The position numbers were made by a program, and so were the translations under genes. The notes beneath the pieces were generated by a model. That model saw only the letters and a list, made by a program, of their open reading frames with translations, did no database searches and was not told where the DNA came from. Shown piece after piece: positions 1 to 63,644 of a stretch of DNA of 64,000 nucleotides (positions are counted from its first letter, which is position 1; each line of letters begins with the position of its first letter). The stretch lies in IMG/VR virus record IMGVR_UViG_3300013947_000004; one strand, 5' to 3'. The stretch is from a virus.

Positions 1-624
1 TCCCGCCAATAAATCCCATCGGTTTGCCTCGCTATCGTAAAAATATTCCTCTGGGATATGTTTGTCGTGGAATAATTTTAATCTTTTTAATTCTGCCCAG
101 AAACCACTTTGGAATTTAATAACAGCTGCCCCTTCTTCCTTACGAACAGTTTTTTGTTTCCAATCTAAATTATCTAAGGTGTTTTCTAAATCTTCGTACC
201 CAGATGTTATTTCTGCGGCTTTGTTATTTCCATCCCCTAACCACATCCCTAAATCATAGGGGGAAATAATGTGCCCCTTCTGAGGGAATTGTAACGCTCC
301 TCCTAAAGGTATTCTAAAAGCTTTCTCCTGATACCCTCCCTGAGGATTCCCTAAATTCTGTTTGCCATACATTGTTAAGGTGTCTATTATATTCCAACGA
401 CGTTTACGTTTATCCCAAACATCCCAGAGATGCCCTGCATCACAAACAATTTTTTCTCCGTCGTCGAACTCTACTTCAAAGCATGGGTGGTTATTGAATA
501 TTTTAGAAGTGCTACCAACAAGAACAGGGTCTCCATTTTCATCATATACGTAATCCCCAGCGTTGAGCTTTCCCATTTGTTTATACCCATTGGGTGTCGG
601 AATTAAAGTATATATAGAAAGAGC
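1..624 (-). mobile_element. Intein (partial) inserted in the TerL P-loop. Class-3-like, with a LAGLIDADG homing endonuclease domain.
   Basis: Starts with Ala right after GK (codon 622-624). Block B reads CDAGHLW (His then Trp two residues later). LAGLIDADG motifs DLGMWLGDGNN and RWDLLAG. The N-terminus is alignable to the helicase intein. Confidence 0.7.
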
Positions 625-813
625 TTTTCCTGATTCCCGGAAGCCTTCTACTGCATAGTGATTTTTACCATGTAAAAGGATATTTCCCCATTCCTCTTGG
701 AATGTAGGGGTCTTTACTTCATCCTCAACGGGGAGAAAAACTCTTCTGAATAACATCAAATCATCTTTGGCTGATGCAAATAACTGCGCCATTTGTTTTT
801 GTTTGTCATTCAT
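1..813 (-). CDS. terL: Terminase large subunit, N-terminal part: 63-aa N-extein ending in the Walker-A GK, followed by an intein. The ORF runs off the window start.
   Basis: My own minus-strand translation from the ATG at 813 (RBS AAAGGGGGA): MNDKQKQMAQLF...AVEGFRESGK|ALSIYTLIPTPNGY... It is absent from the ORF track because there is no stop inside the window. Confidence 0.8.
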   Translation of the reverse strand, partial: MNDKQKQMAQLFASAKDDLMLFRRVFLPVEDEVKTPTFQEEWGNILLHGKNHYAVEGFRESGKALSIYTLIPTPNGYKQMGKLNAGDYVYDENGDPVLVGSTSKIFNNHPCFEVEFDDGEKIVCDAGHLWDVWDKRKRRWNIIDTLTMYGKQNLGNPQGGYQEKAFRIPLGGALQFPQKGHIISPYDLGMWLGDGNNKAAEITSGYEDLENTLDNLDWKQKTVRKEEGAAVIKFQSGFWAELKRLKLFHDKHIPEEYFYDSEANRWDLLAG

Positions 814-838
814 TATATATCCCCCTTTCCGCCGTGAT

Positions 839-857
839 TTGATTCCTTGGGAATCAA
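839..857. promoter_or_regulatory. Perfect palindrome TTGATTCC-TTG-GGAATCAA just upstream of the terL start; putative operator.
   Basis: 8-bp arms read directly from the sequence, 26 bp upstream of the terL ATG. Confidence 0.4.
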
Positions 858-879
858 GACTTTGCCTTGATTAGCCATG

Positions 880-900
880 TTAAACAGTAAAACTGTTTAA
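880..900. promoter_or_regulatory. Perfect palindrome TTAAACAGT-AAA-ACTGTTTAA; putative operator with ACAGT half-sites.
   Basis: 9-bp arms. The same ACAGT/ACTGT half-site recurs at 951-962, 1030-1037, 1052-1059 and 27159-27171. Confidence 0.45.
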
Positions 901-941
901 ATGTAGTTCACCTGTATTGAGAGTATTCTCCATTTTTAAAT

Positions 942-1062
942 ATTCCCGTATGACAAACTGTCTATTTTAACTTGTTTTTAAGGATTTATTCTACCATTTT
1001 GTATATTTCTATCATAGATTCCCGTGTTTAGACAGTAATTCCCGTATATTTAAACAGTTTTA
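942..1062. promoter_or_regulatory. Three ATTCCCGT(A/G)T boxes (942, 1018, 1038), each followed by a (G/A)ACAGT box, in the divergent terL / early-island control region.
   Basis: Direct repeats read in the sequence. The region is AT-rich and ORF-free. Confidence 0.4.
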
Positions 1063-1143
1063 CCAAGGAATTTTTAAAATATTTTTTGGAATCCCTTTTT
1101 TTTTATTTATAGTACCCCTTAAAAAGAAGCCCCACCCCTCTTT

Positions 1144-1258
1144 AAATGGCTCTAAATTGTTAAAAATGGCTCTCTCAAGCACGTTTTTTAGGTATAACTA
1201 CTGTCTTAGGTATAATTACCCTAAGAGAATATATAAGGCTAAAAATAGCCTTTGAGGG
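1144..1258 (+). promoter_or_regulatory. Promoter-plus-leader cassette, copy A (-10 TATAAT at 1211-1216).
   Basis: Shares the ordered blocks TTGTTAAAA, a T-run, GGTATAAC, N12, TAGGTATAAT, CCTAAGAG and TAAAAATAGC with the copies at 24021-24142(-), 32693-32812(+) and 41764-41874(+). Confidence 0.6.
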
Positions 1259-2105
1259 CGTTATTTTTAATTAAAATGGTAAAAAAATTAACATACGTGA
1301 GTGTACTAACTTCCCTAATTATCGCCGTGCCGTGCCAGTACCCGCAAATACGAAGCCCCACCCCCACAAAGGGGCGAATGATGGGGGGGGTAGGCAAGAA
1401 TGGCTTAACCATGCGGTTTATGGGCTGTTTATTTATGTATAGTGGCTACAAATGGCTTAGTTATGCGGTTGATGCAGTTTTTATGTGGTTTGATATACTG
1501 TAACCATCCCAAGCGGGACGGAAACGAAACGCAAAGGACGCCCACCGAGCTGGGTTGTAGGAATACAAGGTCGGCTCGACGCAATAGTAAAAAGAAAAAA
1601 AATAAAGCCCCAGCCGTGAGGCAAACGGGTTGTTCTTTGAGAACAGAATATGGTATCTTCCACCGGAAACGGTGGGAGTTGGCGACATAAAAAAGTTGCC
1701 GTGGTACCCGATGAAAACGGCTTAACCAAGCCGTTGGAGGGCTAAGCGTCAGATAGCCATGGTAGGCGGCGTGAGATTCGCGGTGTTGTTGCCTGAACTG
1801 GCTATTTAGTAGCCGGGAATGATAACGATTCTAATGGCATATTAAGTTGCATGCCTAGTGAGGGATTATCAATAATCAGAGGTACGTATGTATACTAGTC
1901 GTATCGAGGCTAAGGACCGGGAACGGTGCTTCTGGTTATGGTCGATGTGTCTAGGGTATGGGAGTAGCGGATAGATACTTCTTATACTCTATATACTGTA
2001 ACCAAAGGAACGGAATGTAAGTTTTTTCGCCCCGCTCGGAGTTGTGAAAAGACTTACATTTTAGACAAATAGATTGTCGTGCCGGGGGACGTTAAACACC
2101 GGCCC
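1224..2105 (+). ncRNA. Candidate large structured ncRNA (about 0.85 kb). Could be ROOL/GOLLD-class or unclassified.
   Basis: No credible ORF. G+C jumps from 13/60 at 1261-1320 to 35/60 at 1501-1560. Many stable hairpins, including a GAAA tetraloop at 1660-1675. Lies downstream of cassette A and upstream of the first RBS-bearing gene. Confidence 0.5.
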
Positions 2106-2270
2106 ATGCTCAATTAAGAGCAATTAAATGTATCCCGAGAAATCGGAGAATGGAGAGGGAAAAATGAAATATTACATTTTGGAAAGTTGGGACGGGGTTC
2201 TATTTTTTGGAGGTGGTATAGAGAAAGAGGAATGTTAATCACCGAAAACAAAGAAAGAGGGAATAAAAAC

Positions 2271-2387
2271 ATGACAACAACAAAAGAAATTAAAAACGAA
2301 GATTTGGTGCGGCTTTGGAATACATACTGTGATGTAGAGCACCGTCCCAAGGAACTTTTTGGTTTCAAAACCCGTTATGATTCTTGA
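2271..2387 (+). CDS. Small protein with the LWNxYC motif (paralogue family 1 of 3).
   Basis: Start refined to the ATG at 2271 (RBS AAAGAGGGA). MTTTKEIKNEDLVRLWNTYCDVE... resembles the N-termini of 3703..4062 and 7054..7338. Confidence 0.5.
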   Translation: MTTTKEIKNEDLVRLWNTYCDVEHRPKELFGFKTRYDS

Positions 2388-2395
2388 TTTCCCGG

Positions 2396-2431
2396 TAGAG
2401 AAATCCGCAATGGATTGTCTCTATTTTCTTT
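2396..2431 (+). terminator. Intrinsic terminator or attenuator.
   Basis: TAGAGAAATCC-GCAAT-GGATTGTCTCTA hairpin followed by TTTTCTTT. Confidence 0.5.
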
Positions 2432-2462
2432 GGAACGGGTACTGGGAAAGGAAGTGTTAATC

Positions 2463-2591
2463 ATGACAGAATTAAAAAATTTAACCCCCCACGAAATTAA
2501 TATTTTCGTGGACGGAGAACATTATATGGACATCCCTGTTTCTAGGATAATTGCAAGATGTTCCCAGGGTTTTTCTTGTAAGGGGGTGTAG
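2463..2591 (+). CDS. Small hypothetical protein (42 aa), below the ORF-track cutoff.
   Basis: ATG at 2463 with an upstream GGGAAAGGAAG. Encodes MTELKNLTPHEINIFVDGEHYMDIPVSRIIARCSQGFSCKGV. Fills the gap before 2595. Confidence 0.4.
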   Translation: MTELKNLTPHEINIFVDGEHYMDIPVSRIIARCSQGFSCKGV

Positions 2592-2594
2592 AAA

Positions 2595-3248
2595 ATGAAG
2601 TACGAAGAATATATTGTTGACGGCGTTACCTATTGCCGTATCAATAAAACAGAGGCAAGAAAGATATACAATCAAGGAAGAAATGTATATCTTTGCCCTG
2701 TTCATATGAGATTAGATAGCCCATGGTCGGGAATACCTTACATAAATAATAAAAAGGATATGAGAGCAACTTTTAATGACCGTATATGCCAATACGAGAT
2801 TTACAACTGCGACAGCGAACGCGGACAATACCTTAAGTACTTTAGGGAGGAAATAATTATGAGAAAAGAACAAGTTGTAAAAAAATTGAATGAATTGTGG
2901 CTTAAAGTCTGCAACAAGCCGGGGTGGCGTCGTGGCGTATGCAAATACGCCTACATCATTCTACGGCATGTAGATGACGATGTGGAATTACACCAGCTGG
3001 GGCTTTCAAAAGTCCTTTTAAATGGGGCGGAAAACTGGAAAGAATATTCTTACGGGGGTTGCGCCCTTATTTATGACGGTGATATAGCGGAAGCATTATG
3101 CACCCAAAAAATGCTAGAAAAAAATAAGCACGGAGAGAAAGCCCCTAACGGACGTGACAATTGGTTAGATGTCCAGTCCCGTGCCCTGTTCCACGCCTTT
3201 CAAAAGATATACGGAATTGTGGCTTCCGAAGCAGATGGGAAGTTATAA
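2595..3248 (+). CDS. Hypothetical two-domain protein. An in-frame internal SD plus ATG at 2859 could give a nested 129-aa product.
   Basis: ORF-track ORF. GGGAGG lies 8 nt upstream of the in-frame ATG at 2859-2861. Confidence 0.6.
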   Translation: MKYEEYIVDGVTYCRINKTEARKIYNQGRNVYLCPVHMRLDSPWSGIPYINNKKDMRATFNDRICQYEIYNCDSERGQYLKYFREEIIMRKEQVVKKLNELWLKVCNKPGWRRGVCKYAYIILRHVDDDVELHQLGLSKVLLNGAENWKEYSYGGCALIYDGDIAEALCTQKMLEKNKHGEKAPNGRDNWLDVQSRALFHAFQKIYGIVASEADGKL

Positions 3249-3343
3249 CCCCTACTTTAATATATTTACCAAAGTTCAGAACAAAACGTTCTGAGCTTGA
3301 ATAAGGGTATTAAACTCTTAAATAAAAAAATGGAGGGTTTATT

Positions 3344-3684
3344 ATGAAAAAATTTTACTACGCTCGGTACTCCAGATTTGGAGTTAAAACGATATGGGGT
3401 GACACGGGAAATCCTACAGGGGTTTCCTAGCGTTCACCTCCAAAGCTTCACGTGATAATTGGGGAGATGACCACGAATGGGATTACTACCCGAATTGGTC
3501 AGCTTGCACGGAAACTAGGGAGAATGTTGAACAAGCTCTAGGAAAATTTATCATCGTAAATGATAAAAGATGTGCAGATGGTGCATTGTCTGTATATAAA
3601 TATAAAGGGGACTACGGAAATTTAAAAAAAATCAAAAATTGTTTGTACTGCTCGGTAAAGAAAGCCCGAGCATGGATGATATAA
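3344..3684 (+). pseudogene. Frameshifted ORF (-1 shift at the GGGG run 3419-3422).
   Basis: ATG at 3344 with RBS GGAGGG. Frame 0 stops at 3428-3430. The -1 frame stays open from 3421 to the stop at 3682-3684 (GFLAFTSKASRDNWGDDHEWDYYPNW...). Confidence 0.45.
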
Positions 3685-3702
3685 AAAAGGGAGGAATTAA
3701 TT

Positions 3703-4062
3703 ATGACAATTAGAGAACAGCTCTCAGAAAGTTTAGAAAATTTGGATTTCCATAATCTCGTTACATTATGGAACCAATGCTGTATTGATTGTAACTACAC
3801 GGACGATTATATCCATGAGAATAATGAGTACGAGATAGAAAACAGCTTCTCTAGTCCGTGGGAAGCATTGAGAAGTTCTTATTCTTACTCTACGGACGAC
3901 GACTATTTTTCCTTTGATGGATACGGAAGATTAAATTCCTTTAGTGGAATGTGTTCTTATTGCCCAATTCAGATAGGCGATTTAGCAGACTGGTTAGAAA
4001 GTCATCCCGAATACTGGGATGAATTGGATGTAGAAGAAATGGAGGGAAACGATAATGAATAA
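3703..4062 (+). CDS. Acidic protein with the LWNQCC motif (paralogue family 2 of 3).
   Basis: ORF track. NLVTLWNQCCIDCNY motif and a D/E-rich C-terminus. Confidence 0.6.
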   Translation: MTIREQLSESLENLDFHNLVTLWNQCCIDCNYTDDYIHENNEYEIENSFSSPWEALRSSYSYSTDDDYFSFDGYGRLNSFSGMCSYCPIQIGDLADWLESHPEYWDELDVEEMEGNDNE

Positions 4063-4543
4063 AAAACAAATAGAAAAAATAGAAAACTTAGTACGGGAAA
4101 TTATTGCTACAAATTTTCCTTGGTGGTACGTCCCTAGGGACGTAGAATATAAAACTTGTAATGCAATTCATTATTCCGGGGCTACGAAATTATGGAGAGA
4201 CAACTATAGAGCAGTTATATCTTTGTCAGATAAATTTTCGCAAGAGGATGGGAATACACTAGTGCATGAATTAGTCCATGCATTCCTCCCTTTTAAGGAA
4301 ATGCATGGAGAAAAGTTTCAATCCGTATGTAGGTTTATAGAAGGGCATACGGGATATAAGCCCAATATTCCGGTGGAACCTGTTCCGCCCAAGTATATAA
4401 TCCGGTATTACAACAGAAATACCGGGGCTTACATAGGTTACAAAGCCCTTTACAGAAAAGTAAAAATAGTAAAATTTTTACTATCTGTGGATTGTTTATG
4501 GAGAGACTCCGAATATATCGTGAAGCTGGAGGTGAGAAAATGA
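4055..4543 (+). CDS. SprT-like zinc metallopeptidase domain protein.
   Basis: HExxH motif in the context NTLVHELVHAFLPF. Confidence 0.55.
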   Translation: MNKKQIEKIENLVREIIATNFPWWYVPRDVEYKTCNAIHYSGATKLWRDNYRAVISLSDKFSQEDGNTLVHELVHAFLPFKEMHGEKFQSVCRFIEGHTGYKPNIPVEPVPPKYIIRYYNRNTGAYIGYKALYRKVKIVKFLLSVDCLWRDSEYIVKLEVRK

Positions 4544-4716
4544 GTAAGTACCGCAAAGATAAAAACGGGAAGCACTGGCAATCATTTGCCAGTCTTACCC
4601 CTTGGAATAAGGGTGTTTACATTCTTGAAAGTGTTGTAGACACCCTTAAAATTGCTTTGTACTTTGTTGTAGGATGGTTCTTGTTTAGTTGTCTAATTTG
4701 CATATTAGGGGGGTAA
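4540..4716 (+). CDS. Small membrane protein.
   Basis: ATGA start/stop overlap with the upstream gene. C-terminal hydrophobic segment ALYFVVGWFLFSCLICILGG. Confidence 0.5.
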   Translation: MSKYRKDKNGKHWQSFASLTPWNKGVYILESVVDTLKIALYFVVGWFLFSCLICILGG

Positions 4717-4719
4717 AAT

Positions 4720-5931
4720 ATGAGAATACTGCATATTGAAAAGGACTACGCTATAGTCCAAGGGAAAAGTAAAAAAACAGGAGGCATTATTCCCGTCGCT
4801 ATCCCTACGTCGGAATTAGCCTACCCAGTTACTTACAAGGGAAATGAATATAAGAAAGAAGAAATTTCCTTTTGTTCCGATTGCGGAGATTTTATCCCAG
4901 CCGGGAATAAAGTTGTAATACAGGGCATGGTACTTTGCTCTGGCTGTTCTTGGAACTACATTCCTTGCACTAAATGCGGTGAAATCCACAACAAGAAGGT
5001 CGATATGGAATTTGTGGACGGAAGTTATATCTGCCACAAATGTATAGAGAAAGACGACTCTATACAGCTTTGCGATAGTTGCGGAGAATTTACCCATGTA
5101 GACAATCTTTCCAAAGTTGACGGTCGTTATATATGCCATGAATGCCTACATGTCATATACAGAGAATGTATAAAAGAGTATCACCTCTCCAGGAGTGTCC
5201 AATACTACTCCACACCTTATAAATCGGATACTCGGAGAAAAACAACCAAACTGTATTTAGGAATGGAGTTGGAAATGCCTTTCATCGGAGAGGATAATGG
5301 GGAACTGGCTTACAGTATCTTGAAAAATCCATACCTAAAAATAGAAAAGGATACCTCTATCAAGGATGGATTTGAGGTGATATCCGATGCCATGACCTTA
5401 GAAGTTTGGCAAAAAGAAGGGTTCAAAAGTATTGGTAACGCCGTATCCCTTGCCAAGAAAGAAGGGTTTAAAGAACACTTTAGTAGTGGAATTCATGTAC
5501 ATTTCCACAACGAGCCGTTTACACCAGAACAGCTAAAAAATATAGGGGCTTTCGTAATGCTCCATTATATCGACTGTATCAGATTTGGAAGGCGCGACCC
5601 ACTCCATTTAGATTTTTGTGAGTCTATAGATGATACAGGGAGTATAATGGAAGATTGTAGAGGGCATAGAATGGCGGTTAATTTCGAACATCCTCTACAT
5701 ACAGAACTACGATTCTTTGCCACGTCGACAGATTTAAATCATATACAGGCAATCTTGGAGTTTGTGTATTGCCTATGCATGACAGCTCTAAGAGTAAACA
5801 AACTATTCGAATGGGAAGACTTATACCAAACAGCGAAAAGTAGCGGAATATGCCCCCATTTTATAAAAGAATATGAAAACAACTTTAATTGCAAAGAAAT
5901 AGAGGGATACGATTATACACAAGTTATGTAG
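4720..5931 (+). CDS. Putative amidoligase (Amidoligase_2 / glutamine-synthetase-like) with an N-terminal array of CxxC zinc ribbons.
   Basis: Six CxxC pairs in the first ~150 aa. Then LGMELEM, KDTSIKDGFEVIS, GIHVHF and ELRFF, matching the family motifs as I remember them. Confidence 0.55.
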   Translation: MRILHIEKDYAIVQGKSKKTGGIIPVAIPTSELAYPVTYKGNEYKKEEISFCSDCGDFIPAGNKVVIQGMVLCSGCSWNYIPCTKCGEIHNKKVDMEFVDGSYICHKCIEKDDSIQLCDSCGEFTHVDNLSKVDGRYICHECLHVIYRECIKEYHLSRSVQYYSTPYKSDTRRKTTKLYLGMELEMPFIGEDNGELAYSILKNPYLKIEKDTSIKDGFEVISDAMTLEVWQKEGFKSIGNAVSLAKKEGFKEHFSSGIHVHFHNEPFTPEQLKNIGAFVMLHYIDCIRFGRRDPLHLDFCESIDDTGSIMEDCRGHRMAVNFEHPLHTELRFFATSTDLNHIQAILEFVYCLCMTALRVNKLFEWEDLYQTAKSSGICPHFIKEYENNFNCKEIEGYDYTQVM

Positions 5932-5943
5932 GGAGATGTTTAA

Positions 5944-6168
5944 ATGAAAATAAATGTAGAACAAACAGTTATATATTTGATTACAACGAGAGCATATGGG
6001 CATGGAGGGACACGTAAATCAATGCCCTGCCCTTCCCTACTCCCTTATCTGGAACACCCCGAACGGGTCGAGTGTGGTTCTAGATTTTGTGAGGAATGTA
6101 TTGAGAAATATTTACTTAAGGCGGAGAAAGAATTTATAGGTAAATACGGGGAGGAATTTAAGATATGA
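5944..6168 (+). CDS. Hypothetical small Cys-containing protein.
   Basis: ORF track; packed within the operon. Confidence 0.45.
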   Translation: MKINVEQTVIYLITTRAYGHGGTRKSMPCPSLLPYLEHPERVECGSRFCEECIEKYLLKAEKEFIGKYGEEFKI

Positions 6169-6584
6169 GAGACGGGAAACAACTAAATAAAATAGCAAAG
6201 GAAATGATAAAGAAATTAAAGAATCACGGAATTACAATTCAGTATTACCATTCCATAACCTCTAACAGTATCTATTTAAAACTAGACTACGGGATGGCTC
6301 ATTCTGTCCGCATTAGTGACCATCGAGGGAATACTAAACTAAGATACAGGTATAATGTATCTCTAAATTTCCAGTCTACAAAAGTCGAGAGAATACCTAA
6401 CAAGTTTGGGTTTAGATATTACGTATCTCCAACCAATGTGAACGAGCTAATAAAAATAATAGTTAAAGAAAGAGAGTCTAGAATACATTTTTTGACAAAG
6501 CAGAAATATGAAAAAGGAATGCAAATCAATTTTGCCCAAAATGAAGGGAGGGCTGGGTTTTGGAGTAAGTACAAATATGTTTGA
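6165..6584 (+). CDS. Hypothetical protein.
   Basis: ORF track; 4-nt overlap with the upstream gene. Confidence 0.55.
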   Translation: MRDGKQLNKIAKEMIKKLKNHGITIQYYHSITSNSIYLKLDYGMAHSVRISDHRGNTKLRYRYNVSLNFQSTKVERIPNKFGFRYYVSPTNVNELIKIIVKERESRIHFLTKQKYEKGMQINFAQNEGRAGFWSKYKYV

Positions 6585-6640
6585 CATATGTAGTTTGATG
6601 CAGTATTATTAAATCATCAAAAGATAAGGGAGGAATTTAT

Positions 6641-7036
6641 ATGGCATTTGTAAGCTTAGAAAAAGACTACTGGGATAAGATTGCACTATCCAATGGGATG
6701 TCTGACGACCATCTTACAGAAGAAATGAAGGATGAGTCGAAATCTCTCGCCGCAACTTGCGGTATTGCAGGACTTGTCGCCTTATACAGTGATGATAAGG
6801 ACGTACAGTACTGCGGGAAACAGTTAAAACAAACTGCCTCCGATTTGGTGGATAATATCATGTTTCCTGATATGATTAACCGCTATTGCGAGTTAGTCGA
6901 CCGTATCGGGGGAATTATTGATGACTTAGAACAGTTTGACGAAAAAGCTCTTGCAAACTATGTCAAAGAAGAATTGGAATCAGCAAAAACAATCTATGAT
7001 GATTGGAATTTATTTGGTAAATTTGCTACAATGTAA
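6641..7036 (+). CDS. Hypothetical acidic protein.
   Basis: ORF track; RBS AAGGGAGGA upstream. Confidence 0.55.
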   Translation: MAFVSLEKDYWDKIALSNGMSDDHLTEEMKDESKSLAATCGIAGLVALYSDDKDVQYCGKQLKQTASDLVDNIMFPDMINRYCELVDRIGGIIDDLEQFDEKALANYVKEELESAKTIYDDWNLFGKFATM

Positions 7037-7053
7037 TTTAGGAGGAATTAATT

Positions 7054-7338
7054 ATGGGAAAACAAGAATTAGAAAAAGTTGTCAGAAAAATTGTGCATTA
7101 TTGGGATACTGACACTACTATCAGATATTGGAATCAATATTGCGATGAAATGGGATATGAAGATTCTCGAATCGTACCCGTCGGAGATTCTTTAGACGAG
7201 TATTGTAAGGAAGCTTATCCTGACGTAACTGGATATGATGTGTATGATTTAGGTTGCGACGATGGAGAAATTATAGATTGGCTCGTTAATGAAATTTATT
7301 ACGGATATAAAAAATTGGAGGATTTGGATAGATTTTAA
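7054..7338 (+). CDS. Acidic protein with the YWNQYC motif (paralogue family 3 of 3).
   Basis: ORF track; TIRYWNQYCDEMGY; RBS TAGGAGGA. Confidence 0.6.
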   Translation: MGKQELEKVVRKIVHYWDTDTTIRYWNQYCDEMGYEDSRIVPVGDSLDEYCKEAYPDVTGYDVYDLGCDDGEIIDWLVNEIYYGYKKLEDLDRF

Positions 7339-7356
7339 AGAAGGAGGTACTTCCCA

Positions 7357-8625
7357 ATGGCTAGAGAATACAAGCCTTACATTTTACCAACTGAATTGCA
7401 GTTAAAAGATTACCAAAAAGATGGAGTTAAATTCTTACAATCCCATTGGGAAGCTATCTTAGCGGATGAGATGGGGCTGGGAAAGACAGTCACTATGTTA
7501 ATGTCTATTAAGGATTGGATAGACAAACAGAATATGGAGGAGCAGTGCAAACAAAAACGCTGTTTAATCATTACCCCAGCTTCCCTACAATGGACGTGGG
7601 TTAGAGAAATTCAAAGATGGTTTGGGGAGGAAAATTTCTATGACCTTTTCCCTCGTTGTGGTGATAGCTGTATCCAGCTTGATACTTATGAAAATTTAGA
7701 TAAATGGATTCTCCACGAAAAAGGGAGAAGGGCACTTGTCGATATTTGGAATATCGACATGGTGCTATTTGATGAAGCCCATTACCTAAAAAATCCTAGC
7801 TCTAAGCGTCATTTTTACGCTAAAGAAGTTTCTAAGAGGTGTACCTATATTTATCTACTTACCGGAACCCCCATGTCCTCTGGGCCTAAAGATTTAGCCG
7901 CATTATTAGATGTTATGTGGCAGTTAGATACTTTTGGGGGATACAAAACATTTTACCGGAAGTATTGTGACCCCTCTTGGAATGGTTTTGGATATGATTA
8001 TTCTGGCGCATCCAATCAAGAAGAACTACATGAAAAATTAAAGCCTTACCTGTTAAGAAGAACAAAACAGAGCGTTGGGCTTAAGTTGCCACCTAAGACA
8101 GTCAAGAATATTTGTGTTGGGAGTATGGAACAGGAATATGCCTCCACGTTCGAAGAAATGGAAGATTATAGCCGCATGGTGAATAAAGAGAAATTCCCGT
8201 TGGCTGTAAATTTTATAGATAATTTACTAACCAACGGGAAACGACCTGTTATATTCGTTCATCACAAATCATTATTGAAAAAGTTTGTTAACAAGTATAA
8301 GGATAAGTGTGTAGCTATCTACGGGGGGCAGAGTAAAGACGAAAGACAGAAATCAGTAGACAGATTCCAAGCGGGAGAAATCCCTATTATTATATGCTCC
8401 CTTATGGCATCAGCTGTAGGACTTACTCTTACAAGTAGTGATACTGCTGTATTCCTTGAATATCTTTGGTCGCCAGATATTTCAAAACAGGCAGAAGATA
8501 GAATACACCGACTTTCACAAACAAAGCCTTGTACTATTTATAACCTGTATATGAATTACTCAATCGAGCAACAAAAATTGCTAACAATTTATGCTAAACA
8601 ATTAAGAACGGAGGGAATTTTATGA
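7357..8625 (+). CDS. SNF2/RAD54-family helicase.
   Basis: Motifs LKDYQKDGV, ADEMGLGKT, FDEAHYLKN, LLTGTP, and a C-terminal helicase motif QAEDRIHRLSQ. Confidence 0.85.
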   Translation: MAREYKPYILPTELQLKDYQKDGVKFLQSHWEAILADEMGLGKTVTMLMSIKDWIDKQNMEEQCKQKRCLIITPASLQWTWVREIQRWFGEENFYDLFPRCGDSCIQLDTYENLDKWILHEKGRRALVDIWNIDMVLFDEAHYLKNPSSKRHFYAKEVSKRCTYIYLLTGTPMSSGPKDLAALLDVMWQLDTFGGYKTFYRKYCDPSWNGFGYDYSGASNQEELHEKLKPYLLRRTKQSVGLKLPPKTVKNICVGSMEQEYASTFEEMEDYSRMVNKEKFPLAVNFIDNLLTNGKRPVIFVHHKSLLKKFVNKYKDKCVAIYGGQSKDERQKSVDRFQAGEIPIIICSLMASAVGLTLTSSDTAVFLEYLWSPDISKQAEDRIHRLSQTKPCTIYNLYMNYSIEQQKLLTIYAKQLRTEGIL

Positions 8626-8840
8626 GTATGACCGCAGTATATATTATTTATTTTATTACAGCTCTTATCTACCTATTTCCTTTATGGTATGCTTTTAGAT
8701 TTGCTAAACGTAAATTCAAAGAAAAGAAATATGTAAAATCTGTATTATCTGTATTAGGTGGAATTATAGTTACAGCAATTTTAAAAGGTATCTTAAACGC
8801 AATAGTTAAAGCTTTTATTATGTCACAGGGAATCCATTAA
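8622..8840 (+). CDS. Small membrane protein.
   Basis: Two hydrophobic segments; 4-nt overlap with the SNF2 gene. Confidence 0.5.
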   Translation: MSMTAVYIIYFITALIYLFPLWYAFRFAKRKFKEKKYVKSVLSVLGGIIVTAILKGILNAIVKAFIMSQGIH

Positions 8841-8856
8841 GAAATAGGAGAGTCTC

Positions 8857-9135
8857 ATGAAGAAATTAATTATCTTAATATACTTATTATTCACCCCTGT
8901 TTTACTTGTCTCCGTTGCCAATCCAGTTACCATTTATGCAAGCCAAGAAAGCTACGACGCAGGTTATCAAAGAGGTTATTTTTGTGGTAAAAATAATAGA
9001 ATGATACCAGATAATTTATACGAAATGGATAGTGATTACCAACTAGGGTTCGATAAAGGATTAAGCGATGGGAAAGATGAATTAGCCTACGAGATAAATA
9101 ACCATCAGAGCAATTCTGTAGTGGTTTGGGGTTAA
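8857..9135 (+). CDS. Secreted or membrane-anchored small protein.
   Basis: N-terminal signal-like LIILIYLLFTPVLLVSVA; last gene of the plus-strand island. Confidence 0.5.
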   Translation: MKKLIILIYLLFTPVLLVSVANPVTIYASQESYDAGYQRGYFCGKNNRMIPDNLYEMDSDYQLGFDKGLSDGKDELAYEINNHQSNSVVVWG

Positions 9136-9176
9136 AAAAAAATAGCCGGGGATTATTCCCCGGCTTCTTTATTTGT
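9134..9176. terminator. Bidirectional intrinsic terminator between convergent operons.
   Basis: A-run, then AGCCGGGGA-TTAT-TCCCCGGCT, then a T-rich tail. Confidence 0.7.
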
Positions 9177-10916: not shown

Positions 10917-13134
10917 TTACGGTTTCTGATAAAATCTTAATCCAGCTTCTTTTTGACGGTCTTTCGAGTACGAACTGATTCGTTTTAAATATCCAATAAC
11001 CCGTGTTGCATAATCAACATTTTTAGACCCACACTTTGTACAATGGTCTTCCGTGTTGACATTAATGTACCCACAATCGTTACAAACAGTCATTAAGCAG
11101 TTAAATGTCCAATAATTACAACCCAATTTACCAGTGATACACATTAAACTGTAAGCCTGTTCCTTAGTAAGCAACTGAGCAATATTTAAATGACAAGCCG
11201 ACCCGCCATCTAAGTATTTAACCGTATTTTCACCATGCAATGCAACTTTATCAAGCAACGTCAAATCTTGATTTTCTACAGGATAGAAATATGAGTTGTA
11301 ACAGTCTCTTGGTACATCTAATCCATCATGTTTATCCCATTGTGCATTTTTAACTCCTAATCCCTCAGCCATTCTGTTACTTTTATGACCTATGAAACTT
11401 ACCCTACCAACTCTAACTCTTTATTTCTTCTCGCCTCAAGAGCTTCCTCTGCCGTTTTCGCATTTTCCTCAGCCTCACCACAAAAACAACATTTCTTCAT
11501 ATATTCCTCCCCCCGGAGGATAAGTTTCATAGGCGGCCACGGTTCTTCCTAAAGTGTCTTTACACTTGACCATGGCTCCAGAGTTTCATTTTGTTATATC
11601 TCTGGTTCAGACTATCGCATAACCTCACTAGGAGGCCCCCCTTTATTTAGTCGTTCACGCTACCATTACGCTTGCGCCTTGTTATCCACTTCTGGAACTT
11701 CAAGTCAATTAAAAGGAGTTTTTTATGATGGGTTATGTATTATCCCACCAAGTCCCCACTCATTTTAGGGACAAATTCTGTATTAAACATGCACCCATAC
11801 GTTTCTGATGCTTTTTTATTGCAACCATGGATTACTTTTAAACACTTCGCTACTTCTCCCTGATATTTTTTTATATCGTCCTGAGGGTTGTATCCTTTAT
11901 ATTCCATTGCTTCCAACATACCATTGATACCGATAGTGCAGAATTGATGGTCGAAATTTACAAACCCTGCTGTATATGCAGGAAGCATACCTTGGGAAAT
12001 ATACCATTTAATAACTTCCCTGTGGGCGTATAAATACTTCTGAACTCTCCGAACAAGCTCTTCGAAATCTTCCCCATGAGTTTCATAGTTTTGTACATAT
12101 CTGTTCATATTGATTGTAATAACTCGGCATGAGCCTGTACTTACTCCGCCTGCCCCTAATGTATAGGAAAATGTATTATCCGCTAATTCGTTACGTAATC
12201 GGCAACACGACGCAAGGCTATCTGCACTACTTGATTCATACAAGAAGAAAGACAAACCTTTAGCCATATCTTCTGCACGCTTGTAAGCAAAATCTTTATC
12301 GGCAGGAGTTTTATTCTCATCAAGAAGCATAGCCGCCGTTAACACTGGGTATGTAAGAAGTTCTTTTTCTCTTTCTTTTCGGAACCAGTCCATAAAGAAA
12401 TCTTGCAAATTACTCAAGGATTCCCAATCTGGTTCTGACCCGTCTGGGAAACGGAAACCTCTAAAAACGGAAGCGAAATAGTATTTATCGAATACAGAAA
12501 TATTCCAAAACACACTTTGATTTCCCCGTGCCGCCGCTGGTTGGTTCAAAGCGTACACAACACCTTGCAACTCTTGGGCAATTTTCTTTGAATGCCGTTT
12601 CAAATAATAATTACCGTATTGCTTACGGGCGAAATAGTCGAAATACATTAAGAACTCTACGGTGGCTGTCGCTCCTGCCCAGTTCGTAGCAAGCTGATAT
12701 ACCAAGTTAACAAACGAGCCACAAAAGCTCTGCAAGTTCTTTGGAGCTTTGGAAGTACCTCCCAAACATTTCGTTCCTTCGAGTAGAAAGGGATACATCG
12801 TCACACTCGCACAATATGGGAGAAACGCCGCCAAGGTTTCATCATGTACGTAAATAAGGTGTTCCTCAATATCTTTCAAATATCTATTAGCTAGTTTTTC
12901 GCCGAATAGTTCTTTAATCTCATCGTAGATAATCTTACGGCTAACTTGAATGTTTTCAAACTTCCACATTTCTTCTCTTAATGTTCCCATATTCTTTTCA
13001 GAAACATTAGAATTGGAGTCTACAAGGGAAGCCGTGGCGTTATTTTGTTCTCCTACATAATACTTAATGTAATCTACTTTCTTCCCAATTTGTTCTGGTG
13101 TAAGCCAGTTGAAGTACTCTTTTTTGTTACTCAT
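10917..13134 (-). CDS. nrdD: Anaerobic ribonucleoside-triphosphate reductase; join(11767..13134, 10917..11369) after intron removal.
   Basis: Exon 1 ends ...FNTEFVP and exon 2 starts AEGLGVKNAQWDK. C-terminal Zn ribbon CNDCG..CTKCG and glycyl-radical motif RVIGYL. Confidence 0.85.
11370..11766 (-). mobile_element. Group I intron in nrdD (397 nt, no homing-endonuclease ORF).
   Basis: P1: exon GTCCCU pairs with GGGGAC (11757-11752), with U.G at the splice site. Last nucleotide is G (11370). Core-like GAACGACUAAAU (11656-11645) and GCGAUAGUC (11618-11610). Exons join in frame. Confidence 0.8.
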
Positions 13135-27214: not shown

Positions 27215-28327
27215 TTGGAGGACATGGGAAAACGGGGAAATGGAGAGGGAACCTTATACCAAAGGAAGGATGGTAGTTGGTGTTCGCAGGCTACAATAAA
27301 CAGACGCAGGATTACCGCTTACGGGAAGACAAAAACCGAAGCTAGGGCTAAATTACGCAAGAAAATAGAAGGTTTCATGGTTGGTGGTTCAATAAATAAG
27401 GCAAAAATAACAATCTCTAAAGGGATTCAAATATTTACAAAGGAACACAAAGAAACAAATGAAAGAACCTCTACTTCATACAGAGAGCGTCTAGATATAG
27501 TAAACAAATATTTGGGAGAGGAATTGCTAAATAACTTAGATACAGACATGGCGGAAAAGTTGGTGTCCGATATGATAGAGTTTGGGTATTCTAGGAATAC
27601 AATTAAGTTGGTTCTAACCCAAGTCAAGAAATTGTTTTACTTTGCAAAGAAAACTGGATACATTGAGAAGAATAGATATCTTGGAAAGATACGGATAAAT
27701 AAAAAGACACCGAAATTCATTCTTCCAAAACTTGAAGATGTTGTCCAAGTTATCCAAGAAATAAAATCGGTGCCACTGAAATATTTGGCTATGTTCGGTA
27801 TTTATACTGGTCTTCGTAGAGGAGAATTATGTGGTTTGCAATGGAAAGACATTTCAGAAGATGGTGTTATAACCGTGATGAGAGAATATGTCGGGTATAA
27901 GAGAAGTAATTGTGAATTAGCACCGCCTAAAAATGGGATTGTTGGTCAAAAAGTTCAATCCCCAGAAGAAGGAATTGAACTATTAAAAGAATTACAAGAA
28001 TATTATAAAGAGAAAAGAATAGAAAGCGAATTTGTATTCTGCAAAAAAGATGGCAGACCTCTTTTACCAAAAACAGTGTCCACCGAACTTGGCAGGAGGA
28101 TAAAAAAAATAGCCCCTCACGGGGCTGTCCATATTTTAAGACATTTAAATGCTACTTTCTTAGCGTCACGGAATATTCCAATTAGAACAATTTCTATGCA
28201 GTTAAGACATAGCAATGTTTCTATTACAGACAAATATATAAATGAATTGATTGGTGAAAACAGGGATGATATAAAAAATCTTTCATTGGGTTGCAGTAAG
28301 GTTGCAGTAACTAAGAAAGAACCCTAG
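27215..28327 (+). CDS. int: Tyrosine integrase.
   Basis: GLRRGELCGLQW and HILRHLNATFL...LRHSNVSITDKY (R..HxxR..Y). Extended -10 TGATATAAT at 27194-27202. An alternative ATG lies at 27224. Confidence 0.85.
   Translation: MEDMGKRGNGEGTLYQRKDGSWCSQATINRRRITAYGKTKTEARAKLRKKIEGFMVGGSINKAKITISKGIQIFTKEHKETNERTSTSYRERLDIVNKYLGEELLNNLDTDMAEKLVSDMIEFGYSRNTIKLVLTQVKKLFYFAKKTGYIEKNRYLGKIRINKKTPKFILPKLEDVVQVIQEIKSVPLKYLAMFGIYTGLRRGELCGLQWKDISEDGVITVMREYVGYKRSNCELAPPKNGIVGQKVQSPEEGIELLKELQEYYKEKRIESEFVFCKKDGRPLLPKTVSTELGRRIKKIAPHGAVHILRHLNATFLASRNIPIRTISMQLRHSNVSITDKYINELIGENRDDIKNLSLGCSKVAVTKKEP
28289..28310 (+). repeat. Tandem GGTTGCAGTAA x2 at the 3' end of int.
   Basis: Exact 11-bp tandem repeat. 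Confidence 0.8.
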
Positions 28328-28485
28328 CATTCATCAGCTATTACGGGCATAATGACATATCAAGACTGATAGGGATACATTCCCTCACAAGAATCTAGGA
28401 ATTAAGCCGTTTACCGGGTTTACACCGAATTTTCTTTAGCTTATTATACAACATAAACAACATGAAATACTAAGAATGATAGCTC

Positions 28486-28508
28486 GGTTGCAGTAGTTAT
28501 TGCAGTAG
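28486..28508 (+). repeat. Second pair of TTGCAGTAG boxes just upstream of the XRE promoter.
   Basis: GGTTGCAGTAG followed by TTATTGCAGTAG, in the same orientation as 28289-28310. Confidence 0.75.
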
Positions 28509-28511
28509 AGT

Positions 28512-28540
28512 TTGATTTATAAGAAATGCTATGATATTAT
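28512..28540 (+). promoter_or_regulatory. Sigma-A-type promoter of the XRE gene.
   Basis: TTGATT, 17 nt, TATTAT. Confidence 0.55.
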
Positions 28541-28561
28541 GTGTATAAGAGGTGATTCAAA

Positions 28562-28897
28562 ATGATTGACTCGGTGGGAAGGAGAATAGCGGAGTTAAGG
28601 GTTAAAAAAGGGATGACACAAAGGGATTTAGCAAACGCCACTGGGATTGGGCAGGCTCTTATTTCTAGATATGAAGCTGGGCATTACAAATCTTTGAGGC
28701 TAAGTACGGCTGTAAAATTAGCAAAGGCATTAGGAACAACCCCAGATTATTTACGCAGTCCTGACAGCAATCTGCCATATCCTTCCGAAGTATTAAATTG
28801 GTTAGCAGACGAAAAGAATTACTCAAAGGTTATGGAAATATACTATGAGGATATGACAAGAAGAATGAAAGAAAGAAATAAAAAAGAAGCCCCCTAA
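28562..28897 (+). CDS. XRE-family HTH regulator (candidate repressor).
   Basis: RIAELRVKKGMTQRDLANATGIGQALISRYEAG. Confidence 0.8.
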   Translation: MIDSVGRRIAELRVKKGMTQRDLANATGIGQALISRYEAGHYKSLRLSTAVKLAKALGTTPDYLRSPDSNLPYPSEVLNWLADEKNYSKVMEIYYEDMTRRMKERNKKEAP

Positions 28898-28912
28898 TCG
28901 GGGGCTTTTGTT
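28887..28912. terminator. Bidirectional terminator between the XRE and dnaE genes.
   Basis: AAGCCCCC-TAATC-GGGGGCTT flanked by A- and T-runs. Confidence 0.65.
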
Positions 28913-34595: not shown

Positions 34596-37500
34596 CTACT
34601 CACTAAATGCTTTAGCTGATTTAGCCAAACTCTGAAGTTCTTTATTGTTCTTCGGGATAGATTTCATCTTCATGTCTATGGAAGTCGTATCTTTTGTTTT
34701 TAGAACTTTCACAATTTGGGAATCTGTCATACCATAAATTTTAAGAGCATCGTAATTTTCCCCATTCGGGTTTTTTATATACTCTTGTTTAGCTTTAGCG
34801 ACTTCTGCTGTATACTTTTTCTTCATAACCCCTAAAACTTTATTGGCGTCAGCGGCGTTATTTTCGCTAACAGGTTTAAATCCTAAGAGCTTCATGAATC
34901 TGTCCGTTGCCGAATAATGGGAAACTGTATCCCCGTAGCTATTTTTGTAGTCCCCAGAAATGGCACTTTGGATTTGCCCTGCACGAGGAGCTATCTGTTT
35001 GAGGACTCCAGTGAATGCGGCAGGAACACTTTCCGCTCCCATAATAGCTTGACCAACACCTTTTGCTGTACTGTACGTCGGGCCTAAACTTGGAGTAAGG
35101 GCATCACCCATCCCGATACGAGAGGATAAGTTAACTCCCGCTAATGTGGGAGCTCCATACAGAGCTACGTTTACGAGTGCTTTCTTAGAAGCACTTCCCC
35201 CTGCCCAGTCAATCATAGCTTTTCGCATCATAAGCCCCGGGCTTGTCCCAGTAACAGAGTCGATGACATCATCAAATAAATCAGCCGCTGGTGCCCCTGT
35301 CGCCCCTGTAAGAATCAACATTGGAACGAGGAATTTCACATTCTCTTTCAATGTATTATTTCTCATAAAGTTGATTGTAAACAGAGGATATTTCTGGAAC
35401 TGTAAGAGTAGTTTACCAGTCTGCCCCGCCATAGCAAACGCCTGAGGGGAATTAACAGGGCTATAGTCAAAGTTCGTTTCTGTTACAGTTTTCTTCGCAT
35501 AATCCATTGCGTACTTTTCTTTTACATCTTCCATACTAATCTTTCCGTTAGATTTCTTTACAATGGATTTATAGAGAGCATCTTTTTTATCTTTTGGTAA
35601 CGCATCGAAGTTATCTTTGCCTTTTATATATGCTCCAATAGCCGTGGCTTTACGAGCAAAAATATCACCTTTGTTGAAGAAATACATGGACTTTTCTGCA
35701 ACATCTTCGAGGGAATGCCCACCGAGTACTTTCCGTTTCTTTTCAAATGCTCCCGGTGTATGTCCAATATCTTCAGCCTCTATTGCAATGCTTCTATCAT
35801 TAATCCCGACGTGCTTAAATAACTTGTCATACGTATCTTTCTTTCCTTGGAGCTTAATCCCTTGAAGCAGGTACTTTTCGCCAATTTTAGCGTTGGCATT
35901 CAAGAGCTGTGCCGCCTGCACAATCATAGCAGATGGGTTTGCCATACCTAGTTTTGTGTAGTTCTGTGTACGAATAACTTTTCTTGTAAGGTCAAAATAC
36001 GGGGTGTCTGTGTGATGGCGTCTAGCAAATCTCCCAATAGCCCCCGTCCTATTTTCTATCTTTCCAATAAAGTCTGTCATGACACTGTTAACAAGATTAT
36101 CAAAAGCAGAGACGGAACGAGGAGCTTCTATCGTCTTAATATATGTTTTCAAGAATTTCTGTTCGTTTGTAGCAGGAGGGTCGTTTACATCTCTTCCGTA
36201 CATTTCTTTGTAAGCCGCTGTTGCTTCCGCCTTAAACTTAGCTTTAGCTACATAGTTAGCCATTGTGCCAAGGTATCTCCATGTAGAGTCTTCGACATTT
36301 TTACTAAACCCATTCATCGTTTCGGGGTTATCTAACCGACCTTGGAAGTAGGGGTTAAACTTTGCTTTCATATTGGCATTGTTAATTAACATAGATAATT
36401 CATCTTTACTAATTGTTTCAGAGGTTCTTCTGCGTAGTTTATCTATAAGCTTGGTATTTTTCATTTGAGCTTTTACCATCTCTACAACTCGGTTATGAAT
36501 CGCATTCTTGGTATTTGAGTTCCATTTCTTCATAATCGTATTTGCTCTATCCATAACATCTTTGACGGGGATAACATCTTTATCTTTGAAGATTTTAGAC
36601 AACATAGCTCGCTTTAACTGATTGTTATATTCTCCTTCTGCAACATCATCGCTGTCTTTTAAATAACCTTCTTCTCTCAATTCTTCTATTTGCTTTGGGG
36701 TGAGCCGCTCTGAGCTATTAAGTTTTGTAGATAATGCGACTGTGTCCATGGGAGTCATTTTGAAAGATTTAGCTTTTATTTCTCCATCCTCTGCCCCCTT
36801 ATTAATATTCTGAACGTATTCTTCTGCGTCCAAAGCGTTGTAGAAAGAATTTGTTCTTACCCAGCTACCGTCGGAATCTTTTTCCATAACGACGTAGGGC
36901 AAGTGGACGTGTGGGAAATATCCATTACGTTTCTTAGGTAGTTTCGTAGCCGCACCTGCGTCTATTGCCGCACGGACAGAATCGTTATAAATATCGTCAA
37001 AGAATTTTTCATTCTTCGCAAATGCATTAATTACACTCTTGATATTTTCTGGTTTGTACGAGGAATCCCCGTATCTCCCGTCAATCTGGTTTAACATTCC
37101 AGTAACAGCCCGTGCATAATTTCGTTTAGCGAAACTGTTAGCGGACTCTTCGCTCCTGAATGCGGAACTCCCTTTGGAGAGGGCATATACAGTAAAGCCA
37201 CGGTTTCTTTCGGAGCCAGCATCTTCCAAAGAATCTCGGAGGGAGCCGACCATTTTATATTCCCCAGATTTTTTAAGCTCTGCTACTTTTTTAGCGGCTT
37301 CCACACTTGACTTGTAATGTTCTATGTACCCGTTATGGTCTAAGGCTAAGTATACATTGCCAATCTTCTGTACCTGCATAGGAGAACGACCCATTTTATC
37401 TGCGTGCAGAATAAGTCTATCTAATGCCGCTATCTGGGATTTGTTCAATCCTTTACGGATGTCAAGGTATTTCTGCGTATATTCTAATGTCTTGTCCCGA

Positions 37501-60625: not shown

Positions 60626-60922
60626 TTATAAAGTATAACTATTAGCTGGTTCTTTATTATCGGAAAGAGCTTCAAATTCATTTTTTGCAATTTCAGCATT
60701 TGTTACTTTGGCTTCAAGCCAGCTTTTAAAATCCTCCAATGCCACCAGCTTGTTGCGAAGGCCCATTACCTCGCGGTCTTGGCACGTTTTGAGGTGTTCG
60801 ATTGTCAGTTCTTGATAATCCTCCAACCATTTGGCTGTTAGGGTCTTGACTAGCTCCGCTTTGTCCCCCAATTCCATTGCCGAGCATAGAGCCTGTCTGT
60901 ACTCCAATTCCGTTTTGTCCAT
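60626..60922 (-). CDS. Coiled-coil protein whose gene starts inside the portal ORF.
   Basis: Strong RBS GGGGAGGAGG 8 nt before the ATG at 60922. Confidence 0.5.
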   Translation of the reverse strand: MDKTELEYRQALCSAMELGDKAELVKTLTAKWLEDYQELTIEHLKTCQDREVMGLRNKLVALEDFKSWLEAKVTNAEIAKNEFEALSDNKEPANSYTL

Positions 60923-62882: not shown

Positions 62883-62893
62883 TAAATCCCCCC

Positions 62894-63172: not shown

Positions 63173-63435
63173 AACTCCTCCTCTATTACAAATAAATACC
63201 TCCCCGCCACGAGGAGGCCCCCTTTTGCAAATGAAAACAAGGAAAACCTTATTTAGCATAGGAAAAGCAGGGTATATTTTAAGAAGTCCCCGTAGAGATA
63301 CTTCCTTGGCTGTTAAAATTTCAGGCTTATGCAGTCACGTCTGACCAAACCAACCTTAAAAAGTATGCCCGTCCGTTTAGGATAGAGCTACTTTCGAGGG
63401 TCTACCCTCCCAGCATAATTTAATGGTTTCTTTCT

Positions 63436-63509: not shown

Positions 63510-63644
63510 AAGATATTCTCTTACCAAACTCTCCTGCCGTAGGATACAAAGTTCAGAGAAAAGCTTTAATCACCTCCTTTCAACTACGGCAAAGTAATAT
63601 TTGCTTTAGTTGTCAAAAGGTATCACCTCTTTCAAAGTGTTTAT

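Follow-up and report, generated by a model that had tools for sequence, protein, structure and literature searches.

The window analysed here is a stretch of 64,000 nucleotides (nt) from one strand of the IMG/VR virus record IMGVR_UViG_3300013947_000004, numbered 5' to 3' from its first letter; it is a nearly complete genome (circular map of ~65.3 kb) of a temperate gut phage of ~65 kb with an SU10-type portal. Positions 813-2163 form the intergenic region between terL, which starts at 813 on the minus strand, and the divergent early genes, and this region contains the subject of this report, a gene-free element at ~1221-2129 (+) that is apparently an uncatalogued large structured RNA, matching no catalogued family. 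The first small open reading frames (ORFs) with ribosome-binding sites (RBSs), 2164-2238 and 2271-2387 (+), start the early operon and lie outside the RNA element; they open an early block (2164-9140, +) of dense genes with strong GGAGG-type RBSs, including one for an SNF2 helicase. A preliminary description, made from the sequence alone, had proposed a giant ornate non-coding RNA at 1224-2105, and the present analysis bears out the element and moves its 3' end to ~2129. The base counts given there were reproduced on recounting (13 G+C in 1261-1320 versus 35 in 1501-1560), and the helix sequences listed at 1660-1675, 1681-1700, 1716-1735, 1753-1805, 1836-1855, 2014-2060 and 2081-2103 were found in place, as were the C-run and G-run at 1355-1390.

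The element is non-coding. The absence of a credible ORF, also claimed beforehand, was borne out: the longest start-to-stop frame has 83 amino acids (aa), Pfam gave no match for five open frames, among them a minus-strand frame that is free of stops for 133 codons, and alternative genetic codes opened no long frame. None of the 11 homologues described below carries an intact gene or conserved ORF here; the longest ORF switches strand and frame among them, just 1-3 of the 9-14 insertions and deletions per homologue sequence are divisible by three, and no reading frame of the kind expected of a protein-coding gene or pseudogene was found conserved. A tblastx comparison against relatives found nothing for the element. 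The ORF at 1277-1503 (MVKKLTYVSVLTSLIIAVPC...) was considered as a conserved small protein and rejected because it lacks a conserved start codon and most of its substitutions are at codon positions 1 and 2.

Homologues were sought in several collections. A blastn search with 1100-2300 against INPHARED phages gave no match, IMG/VR holds only one near-identical contig (5.9 kb), and a structure-loop pattern scan of IMG/VR found nothing, partly because that contig has a single-nucleotide polymorphism inside the pattern. None of the homologues of a 217-aa early protein (2595-3248) led to the RNA. Among TerL relatives at 58-88% identity, every locus has a gene-free gap upstream of terL, and these loci share just the 5' platform of the element, where BLAST matches window positions ~1273-1365 plus short islands. 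The first impression from this set, that the 3' part is unique or non-functional, was superseded by the decisive homologues, which are members of a 90%-identity TerL cluster. These comprise eight same-species loci (at least 99.2% identical over the region, one of them 100%) and twelve loci of relatives whose TerL has no intein, in which the intergenic region aligns to positions 908-2127/2133 of the window sequence (W) at 72-78% identity. Homology stops abruptly past W 2127-2133, and the downstream early genes differ among homologues; the predicted boundaries of the element follow from these ends of homology.

Covariation was counted on a 12-sequence alignment of the whole element (A3; 72-78% identity to W) and on the 3' domain alone (A4), with 500 shuffles and slid alignments as controls for A3. 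The A3 consensus fold has 218 pairs, in which 95.9% of cells are paired (89.6% shuffled, 38-44% slid), 53 pairs show double changes (32.1±3.1 shuffled, reached in 0 of 500; 5-15 slid) and 160 cells are compensatory (54 shuffled, 8-20 slid); these are pair-level counts on a structure derived from the same alignment, yet the margin over both controls is large. Nearly all of the covarying pairs (51 of 53) fall within W 1655-2103, and folding the 3' domain (1655-2122) alone gave 118 pairs, 51 of them compensatory, in at least 11 helices. The check on homologues proposed with the preliminary description therefore returned strong compensatory change, despite the lack of an Rfam match, and its suggestion of a giant structured non-coding RNA of a new class on the plus strand agrees with the homologues at 72-78% identity, the covariation and the missing conserved ORF. 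The element is almost certainly a genuine structured RNA on the plus strand. Its 3' domain, at ~470 nt, fits the description of a large, ornate structured non-coding RNA (at least ~400 nt, no ORF, and many covariation-backed helices and junctions). As judged from the alignments, the RNA is bipartite and continuous with the early-operon leader, and it may or may not also exist as a discrete 0.85-kb transcript.

Folding statistics were expressed as z-scores versus dinucleotide shuffles. For the plus and minus strands, respectively, z was +0.5 and -0.83 in 1224-1500, -4.4 and -3.75 in 1500-1800, and -3.7 and -1.1 in 1800-2110, compared with -0.8 to -2.5 and -0.75 to -2.95 in coding controls; the whole region gave about -4 on either strand. 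The excess folding is genuine, but concentrated in part of the region. The RNAalifold consensus energy of A3 was -193.5 (+) versus -147.0 (-), and the 3' domain contains several invariant G-U pairs that are valid on the plus strand only; both the G-U pairs and the folding energies favour the plus strand.

The 3' ornate domain occupies 1655-2122 (+) and opens with the P1 hairpin (1655-1678), which has a GAAA loop and double changes in five of its eight pairs. The multi-stem P2-P4 domain follows (1681-1793) and includes the 1716-1735 hairpin. Its helices are P2 (1681-1687/1787-1793; compensatory changes in five pairs), P3 (1696-1705/1756-1765; three pairs), P3a (1707-1709/1739-1741; one compensatory pair), P3b (1716-1723/1728-1735; two) and P4 (1766-1774/1778-1786; one). 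All of the helix sequences in the preliminary description are present, but two of its pairings are not those that covariation supports: GGCGACA (1681-1687) pairs with the distal UGUUGCC (1787-1793) and not locally with GTTGCC, and ATAGCCA...TGGCTAT was discarded because some lineages change one side only. P5 (1798-1816) is a GGCU...AGCC hairpin that reads AAGUUGGUAACAACUU in three homologues, a compensatory change. The long P6 hairpin (1821-1870) has invariant internal loops GAUAAC / GUGAGGGAUUAUC and a tip helix (1835-1842/1849-1856) with five covarying pairs. P7 (1872-1939) has eight covarying pairs and an inner hairpin (1896-1900/1908-1912) with three, and the long P8 hairpin (1940-2003) has 13 and a loop, GUAGCGGAUAGAUAC, that does not vary; a 14-mer (ATATACTGTAACCA) has its second copy (1991-2004) in the 3' strand of P8. 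P9 (2015-2059) is an AUGUA...UACAU hairpin with a conserved base helix that undergoes U-A to U-G changes, and its inner stem varies between lineages yet stays self-complementary. P10 (2081-2103) combines three covarying pairs with a conserved loop (GACGUUAAAC), and P11 (2107-2122) with its AAUUAAA tail reaches the 3' limit of homology at 2129.

The element belongs to no Rfam family. Rfam 15 gave no relevant family for 1000-2400 even at E<=10, nothing for the divergent homologue L170 at E<=5, and no match in the window at the gathering score of ROOL (RF03087, 99.1 bits); the sole Rfam match in the window is a tRNA-Trp at 63436-63509, beyond terL and ~3 kb from the element across the window ends. 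Membership in ROOL or GOLLD, one of the two possibilities raised initially, is not borne out, and none of ROOL, GOLLD, HEARO, OLE and raiA is among the matches up to E=10. Genuine ROOL copies occur at a different locus in sister phages (L004 7693-8272, L060 4922-5499 and L061 3193-3770, at 206-218 bits), where they are flanked by terL on one side and an array of 8-12 tRNA genes on the other, in phages that also carry their own long leader; at the equivalent place, the window phage has only the tRNA-Trp. ROOL RNAs are 581 nt long on average and often lie close to tRNAs and within prophages (PMC5737381), and ROOL, GOLLD and OLE assemble as RNA-only homo-oligomers (PMC12286853). The element shares with ROOL and GOLLD (RF01998) a size of several hundred nt, many helices, multi-stem junctions, an origin in Firmicutes phages or prophages, and the lack of a known function. 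Unlike them, it matches no model, is lineage-restricted, comes after a conserved leader platform that includes a boxA-like element, and stands at the head of an early operon; it has the phage setting of ROOL and not its adjacency to tRNA genes. The raiA motif, a large structured Firmicutes RNA often found in apparent 5' untranslated regions, several hundred bp ahead of the genes (PMC5737381), shares these general features with the element, but is chromosomal, about 200 nt long and widely conserved, whereas the element is phage-borne, far larger and without an Rfam match.

Upstream of the ornate domain, a promoter scan found a sigma70-like site, TTGGAA-16-TATAGT (1086-1113, +), with ACCCC..GAAGCCCCACCCC downstream of it at 1126-1138, and no sigma70-like site on the plus strand in 1113-2700. 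The combination of TATAGTACCC and GAAGCCCCAC is kept upstream of the leader in several sister lineages and presumably acts as a promoter. Tandem -10-like boxes, TTAGGTATAACTAC and TTAGGTATAATTAC, form a direct repeat at 1188-1219 (+), and a candidate proximal start site likely lies at ~1221-1224. The segment TAGGTrTAATTACCCTAAGAGAATATATAAGG is near-invariant across 12 W-type sequences. The 5' platform itself (~1270-1650, +) is almost invariant in sequence and common to at least five leader types. Its first part (1270-1364, +), with the AACUUCCCUAAUU box at 1308-1320, then a GC-rich segment and, at 1352-1364, GAAGCCCCACCCC, is conserved in 13 sequences of five leader types (alignment A1) and is the only part that BLAST detects in distant relatives. 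In the consensus fold, a GCCCC...GGGGC hairpin (1355-1359/1371-1375) is predicted within 1355-1390 (+), followed by a run of eight G (1383-1390); the columns here are invariant and so offer no covariation for this hairpin or for the possible pseudoknot that the preliminary description placed at 1355-1390. Further on, the first copy of the 14-mer (AUAUACUGUAACCA) is joined to a UCCC-AAGC-GGGA hairpin at 1493-1520 (+); the exact repetition of ATATACTGTAACCA at 1493 and 1991 had been noticed in the preliminary description. The position of this hairpin is conserved, and in other leader types the stems differ (GUCC/GGAC, CUGUCCUC/GAGGGCAG).

A boxA-like sequence, GUUCUUUGAGAAC (1632-1644, +), separates the platform from the long structured domain. 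Its core, GTTCTTTGA, occurs once in the 64-kb window, and most leader types have a related CYUUGAnAAC in the corresponding place. The rrn boxA reads UGCUCUUUAACAA in E. coli and GUUCUUUGAAAAC in Firmicutes; GUUCUUUGAGAAC resembles these and is a candidate boxA. An optional GC-rich hairpin module of ~100 nt follows the boxA-like element directly in L161, L162, L164, L165, L167 and L168 (A3 columns 523-625). An A-rich stretch followed by AAGCCCCA(C/G)CC is present in three copies (1121-1137, 1347-1363 and 1599-1615, spaced by 226 and 252 nt), two of which read as terminator-like hairpins with T-runs on the minus strand (1378-1357 and 1622-1607).

The platform also carries a 20-nt motif, AAUGGC-UUAACCAU-GCGGUU, with an exact copy (AATGGCTTAACCATGCGGTT) at 1399-1418 (+) and a copy with three mismatches (AAUGGCUUAGUUAUGCGGUU) at 1451-1470 (+), the internal repeat that the first reading had placed at 1399 and 1451. 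In relatives, the second copy is AATGGCTTAACCATGCCGTT, a perfect 7-bp hairpin, and a third, hairpin-type copy lies at 1716-1735, where none is expected by chance. The 20-mer can form an AAUGGC/GCGGUU stem, in which there is a G·G mismatch, closed by a loop of 8 nt that contains the one free position of the search pattern; the second copy of the relatives and P3b are perfect versions of this hairpin. Exact matches to the 20-mer AATGGCTTAACnATGCGGTT are present in 35 contigs of IMG/VR and, over several phyla, in 71 stretches of DNA from bacterial genomes, with more than one copy in some metagenome-assembled genomes (instances in loci L011-L044 and L080-L150), the bacterial carriers being mostly Clostridia and Negativicutes, together with a sponge symbiont, Deltaproteobacteria, Bacteroidia, a candidate phyla radiation bacterium and an Arenicellales metagenome-assembled genome (at least seven copies). 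Across 98 distinct contexts, only A.AAATGG...GGTTT is conserved. The motif appears either as an arm of terminator-like hairpins by tRNA genes or att sites, often near tyrosine integrases (19 loci) or recombinase trios, or at the centre of genome-specific iteron palindromes. No Rfam family overlaps the 20-mer in 16 IMG/VR motif loci scanned, and literature string searches for it returned nothing usable. Two roles were rejected: an attP core of the window phage, whose integrase, GTTGCAGTA arm-type repeats and repressor sit at 27.2-28.9 kb, and the loop of a consistently enclosing stem, which is unsupported across the 98 instances.

Sister phages carry related leaders, which were grouped as types A (L003, L048, L066, L078), B (L004, L006, L060), C (L024, L033, L077) and D (L007, L046), plus L057 and L073, and pattern scans found further platform members. 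Ordered islands run through these leaders: the TATAGTACCC..GAAGCCCCACCCC promoter region, ..GAGAG..UAACUUCCCUAWUU with the GC-rich segment and then GCGAAG and a hairpin, the 20-mer AAUGGCUUAACCAUGCGGUU, a hairpin whose stem varies by lineage (UCCC/GGGA, GUCC/GGAC or CUGUCCUC/GAGGGCAG), and the boxA-like CYUUGAnAAC. Past boxA, the lineages have no detectable similarity; in L046, a gene begins directly after ~220 nt. A covariance model of P1-P5 (R1, 166 positions) recovered all W-type loci at 149-204 bits and found nothing at E<=1 in types A-D and about 40 other loci, and the invariant loop motifs of the W-type were not found in other leader types. Downstream of a common platform, the lineages therefore appear to have structured domains that are similar in size but not homologous, and the 3' domain, as far as these searches reach, is specific to the W-type lineage. 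The type C leader is also a covarying structured RNA: the consensus of its three sequences, which are ~87-90% identical, spans ~735 nt and has 224 pairs (97.8% of cells paired), of which 15 show double changes (6.3±1.8 shuffled, 0 of 500; 0-2 slid), and the consensus energy is -229 (+) versus -169 (-). In the early-operon intergenic regions of L003, L048, L066, L024 and L033, CCCUAUA(G/C) motifs lie at hairpin ends shortly before early genes (e.g. GTCCCTATAGGGGA) and a GGAACG..AUUUUCCCCG motif recurs; both may be processing sites or promoters. The lineage D leader of L007 (5470-4900, -) has the platform, then an AT-rich array of GATTATT-type iterons and several sigma70-like promoters, and no GC-rich structured domain.

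We infer from the lack of a promoter-like site in 1113-2700 and from the tightly packed, RBS-bearing genes downstream that the element is the untranslated leader of the rightward early operon. The best explanation, which we hold to be moderately probable, is an antiterminated leader whose ornate RNA payload precedes the early genes. Host RNA polymerase would start at the sigma70-type promoters in 1086-1216 and transcribe ~1221 (possibly ~1120) to ~2129 of the plus strand as a long, untranslated, structured RNA. The boxA-like element would recruit Nus-type antitermination factors, by analogy with rRNA operons and lambda nut, and polymerase would then cross ~0.5 kb of ribosome-free, hairpin-dense RNA and reach the early genes, escaping termination by Rho or by hairpins. 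The rrn operons and lambda nut use boxA-dependent processive antitermination, and Nus-type antitermination would be the most economical reading here; on this analogy, the antitermination logic stands evenly between acceptance and doubt. The rrn operons likewise have one or more promoters, a hairpin leader with a boxA-like sequence (GUUCUUUGAGAAC here) and then a long untranslated structured RNA, and at lambda nutR/tR1 there is a rut-type sequence that the upstream C-rich patches (GAAGCCCCACCCC, three copies) resemble. Unlike them, the element is a phage early leader of ~0.9 kb whose payload is not rRNA, with no boxB and no N or Q protein identified. In lytic-phage early leaders such as that of T7, with its RNase III sites, strong early promoters are likewise separated from the first early gene by non-coding sequence, but T7-type leaders are shorter and are not known to contain at least 11 covarying helices or exchangeable structured domains. 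The ornate domain would be the payload: a stable, folded RNA that is the first to be made upon infection or induction and that would probably have a trans target, a factor of the host or the phage, in the way suggested for ROOL- and GOLLD-type RNAs. The sharp module boundary and the exchange between lineages argue for a trans function of its own and not for control of a particular downstream gene; even so, a trans-acting payload is tentative conjecture, to which we lean less than to its opposite.

Several observations weigh against an antiterminated leader with an RNA payload. P11 has no U-tract behind it, and no canonical terminator follows. The 5' platform shows hardly any covariation (2 of the 53 pairs), and its conservation could act at the DNA level, through operators or an origin. 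Calling the element a boxA is tentative: literature string searches for boxA variants did not retrieve the consensus, and positions 1534-1539 pair with half of the boxA-like element in the consensus fold. So far only the narrow W-type lineage has yielded the 3' domain, for which a lineage-specific cis-regulatory role is possible. A purely cis-acting leader, that is, a giant attenuator or sensor gating early-gene transcription or translation (for example in the lysis-lysogeny decision) with no trans function, would account for the missing terminator after P11 and for the continuity of the element with the early operon, with no promoter between them, and would suit a phage that is temperate, as its tyrosine integrase (27215-28327, +) and XRE repressor (28563-28900, +) show. 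We nevertheless consider it unlikely, because a cis-regulator normally co-evolves with the gene that it controls, whereas here the immediately downstream early genes differ among homologues, behind an RNA whose conservation ends sharply at ~2130; moreover, known attenuators are far smaller than this domain of about 470 nt and 11 or more covarying helices, and sister lineages place unrelated domains on the same platform.

The remaining alternatives are less probable again. A replication-origin transcript, whether a G-rich primer or R-loop RNA of the ColE1 RNA II type or an origin-activating RNA from the divergent region, would agree with a cumulative GC-skew minimum at ~1100-1300, the G-rich RNA (skew +0.2 to +0.3), the repeats and inverted repeat in 830-1220, and the AT-rich iteron array behind the platform in lineage D (L007). 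The skew switch is not independent evidence, though, because it coincides with the switch in gene orientation, the 3' domain has neither iterons nor an AT-rich unwinding element, and covariation keeps RNA helices along the whole domain and not a hybrid-forming tract, all of which makes an origin transcript quite improbable. That the element is a highly diverged ROOL, GOLLD or other catalogued large RNA (HEARO, OLE, raiA) gains something from its comparable size, phage context and Clostridia-type host range and from the ROOL copies of sister phages; given the Rfam results for the window region (E<=10) and the homologue (E<=5), and real ROOL at 206-218 bits elsewhere, alongside those phages' own long leader, we give it very little credence. 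No more can be given to the idea that no functional RNA is present and that the region is a decayed gene, a recoded gene or a minus-strand transcript. The 133-codon stop-free frame, the minus-strand terminator-like hairpin with a T-run (1622-1607) and the negative minus-strand z of 1500-1800 point that way, but the ORFs have no Pfam match and are unconserved, the indel pattern is non-coding, alternative genetic codes open no long frame, the compensatory G-C to G-U changes are valid only on the plus strand, and the minus-strand consensus energy is much weaker.

Only a handful of bacterial or phage RNAs longer than 400 nt are known to have complex conserved folds: rRNA, group II introns, RNase P, GOLLD, ROOL, OLE and HEARO. 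Every newly described class of large RNA has raised questions of RNA-only biochemistry, the latest being the ROOL and GOLLD nanocages. The element adds a covariation-backed, uncatalogued example at a defined and experimentally approachable position, which would be the first transcript of the early operon of a temperate gut phage, behind an rrn-like antitermination signal. Its modular build, a conserved platform with an exchangeable ornate domain, offers natural swap variants for functional tests and hints that phages diversify large RNAs as they do early proteins. A broader proposal, which we think rather doubtful, is that the conserved leader is a socket (promoters, AACUUCCCUAAUU platform, 20-nt hairpin motif and boxA) that repeatedly received unrelated ornate domains of ~0.5 kb, in at least four non-homologous versions, two of them covariation-backed. 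If true, the socket would be a hypervariable structured-RNA cassette expressed first in infection, an RNA counterpart of fast-evolving early anti-defence or host-takeover genes, or a source of alternative RNA nano-assemblies.

Elsewhere in the genome, terL is split across the window ends (window 1-813 and 63645-64000; 813 aa, start at 813 on the minus strand and end at 63645; L001 2298-4739), and a 5.9-kb public contig bridges window 62513-64000 and window 1-3121 via ~1.27 kb. The window TerL is interrupted by a LAGLIDADG/Hint intein, and the TerL of close relatives has 471-478 aa and no intein. The SU10-type portal is encoded at 60726-62882. Between terL and the leader, window 830-1220 is AT-rich and contains three ATTCCCGTRT repeats (942, 1018 and 1038), AAACWGT repeats and, at 887-905/1045-1063, an inverted repeat of 19 nt. 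The minus strand of this region gives the better fold (z = -3.9); the region is ~77% conserved in relatives and may hold operators or an origin. A 2373-aa ORF at 34596-41717 (-) is without a significant Pfam domain, and an NrdD-like ORF at 11740-13134 (-; 464 aa) spans 7-414 of a 562-position Pfam model and may be truncated or interrupted. The lysogeny island (27215-28900, +) is set within minus-strand late genes, and its GTTGCAGTA repeats at 28290, 28301 and 28487, with TTGCAGTA at 28500, are probably attP arms.

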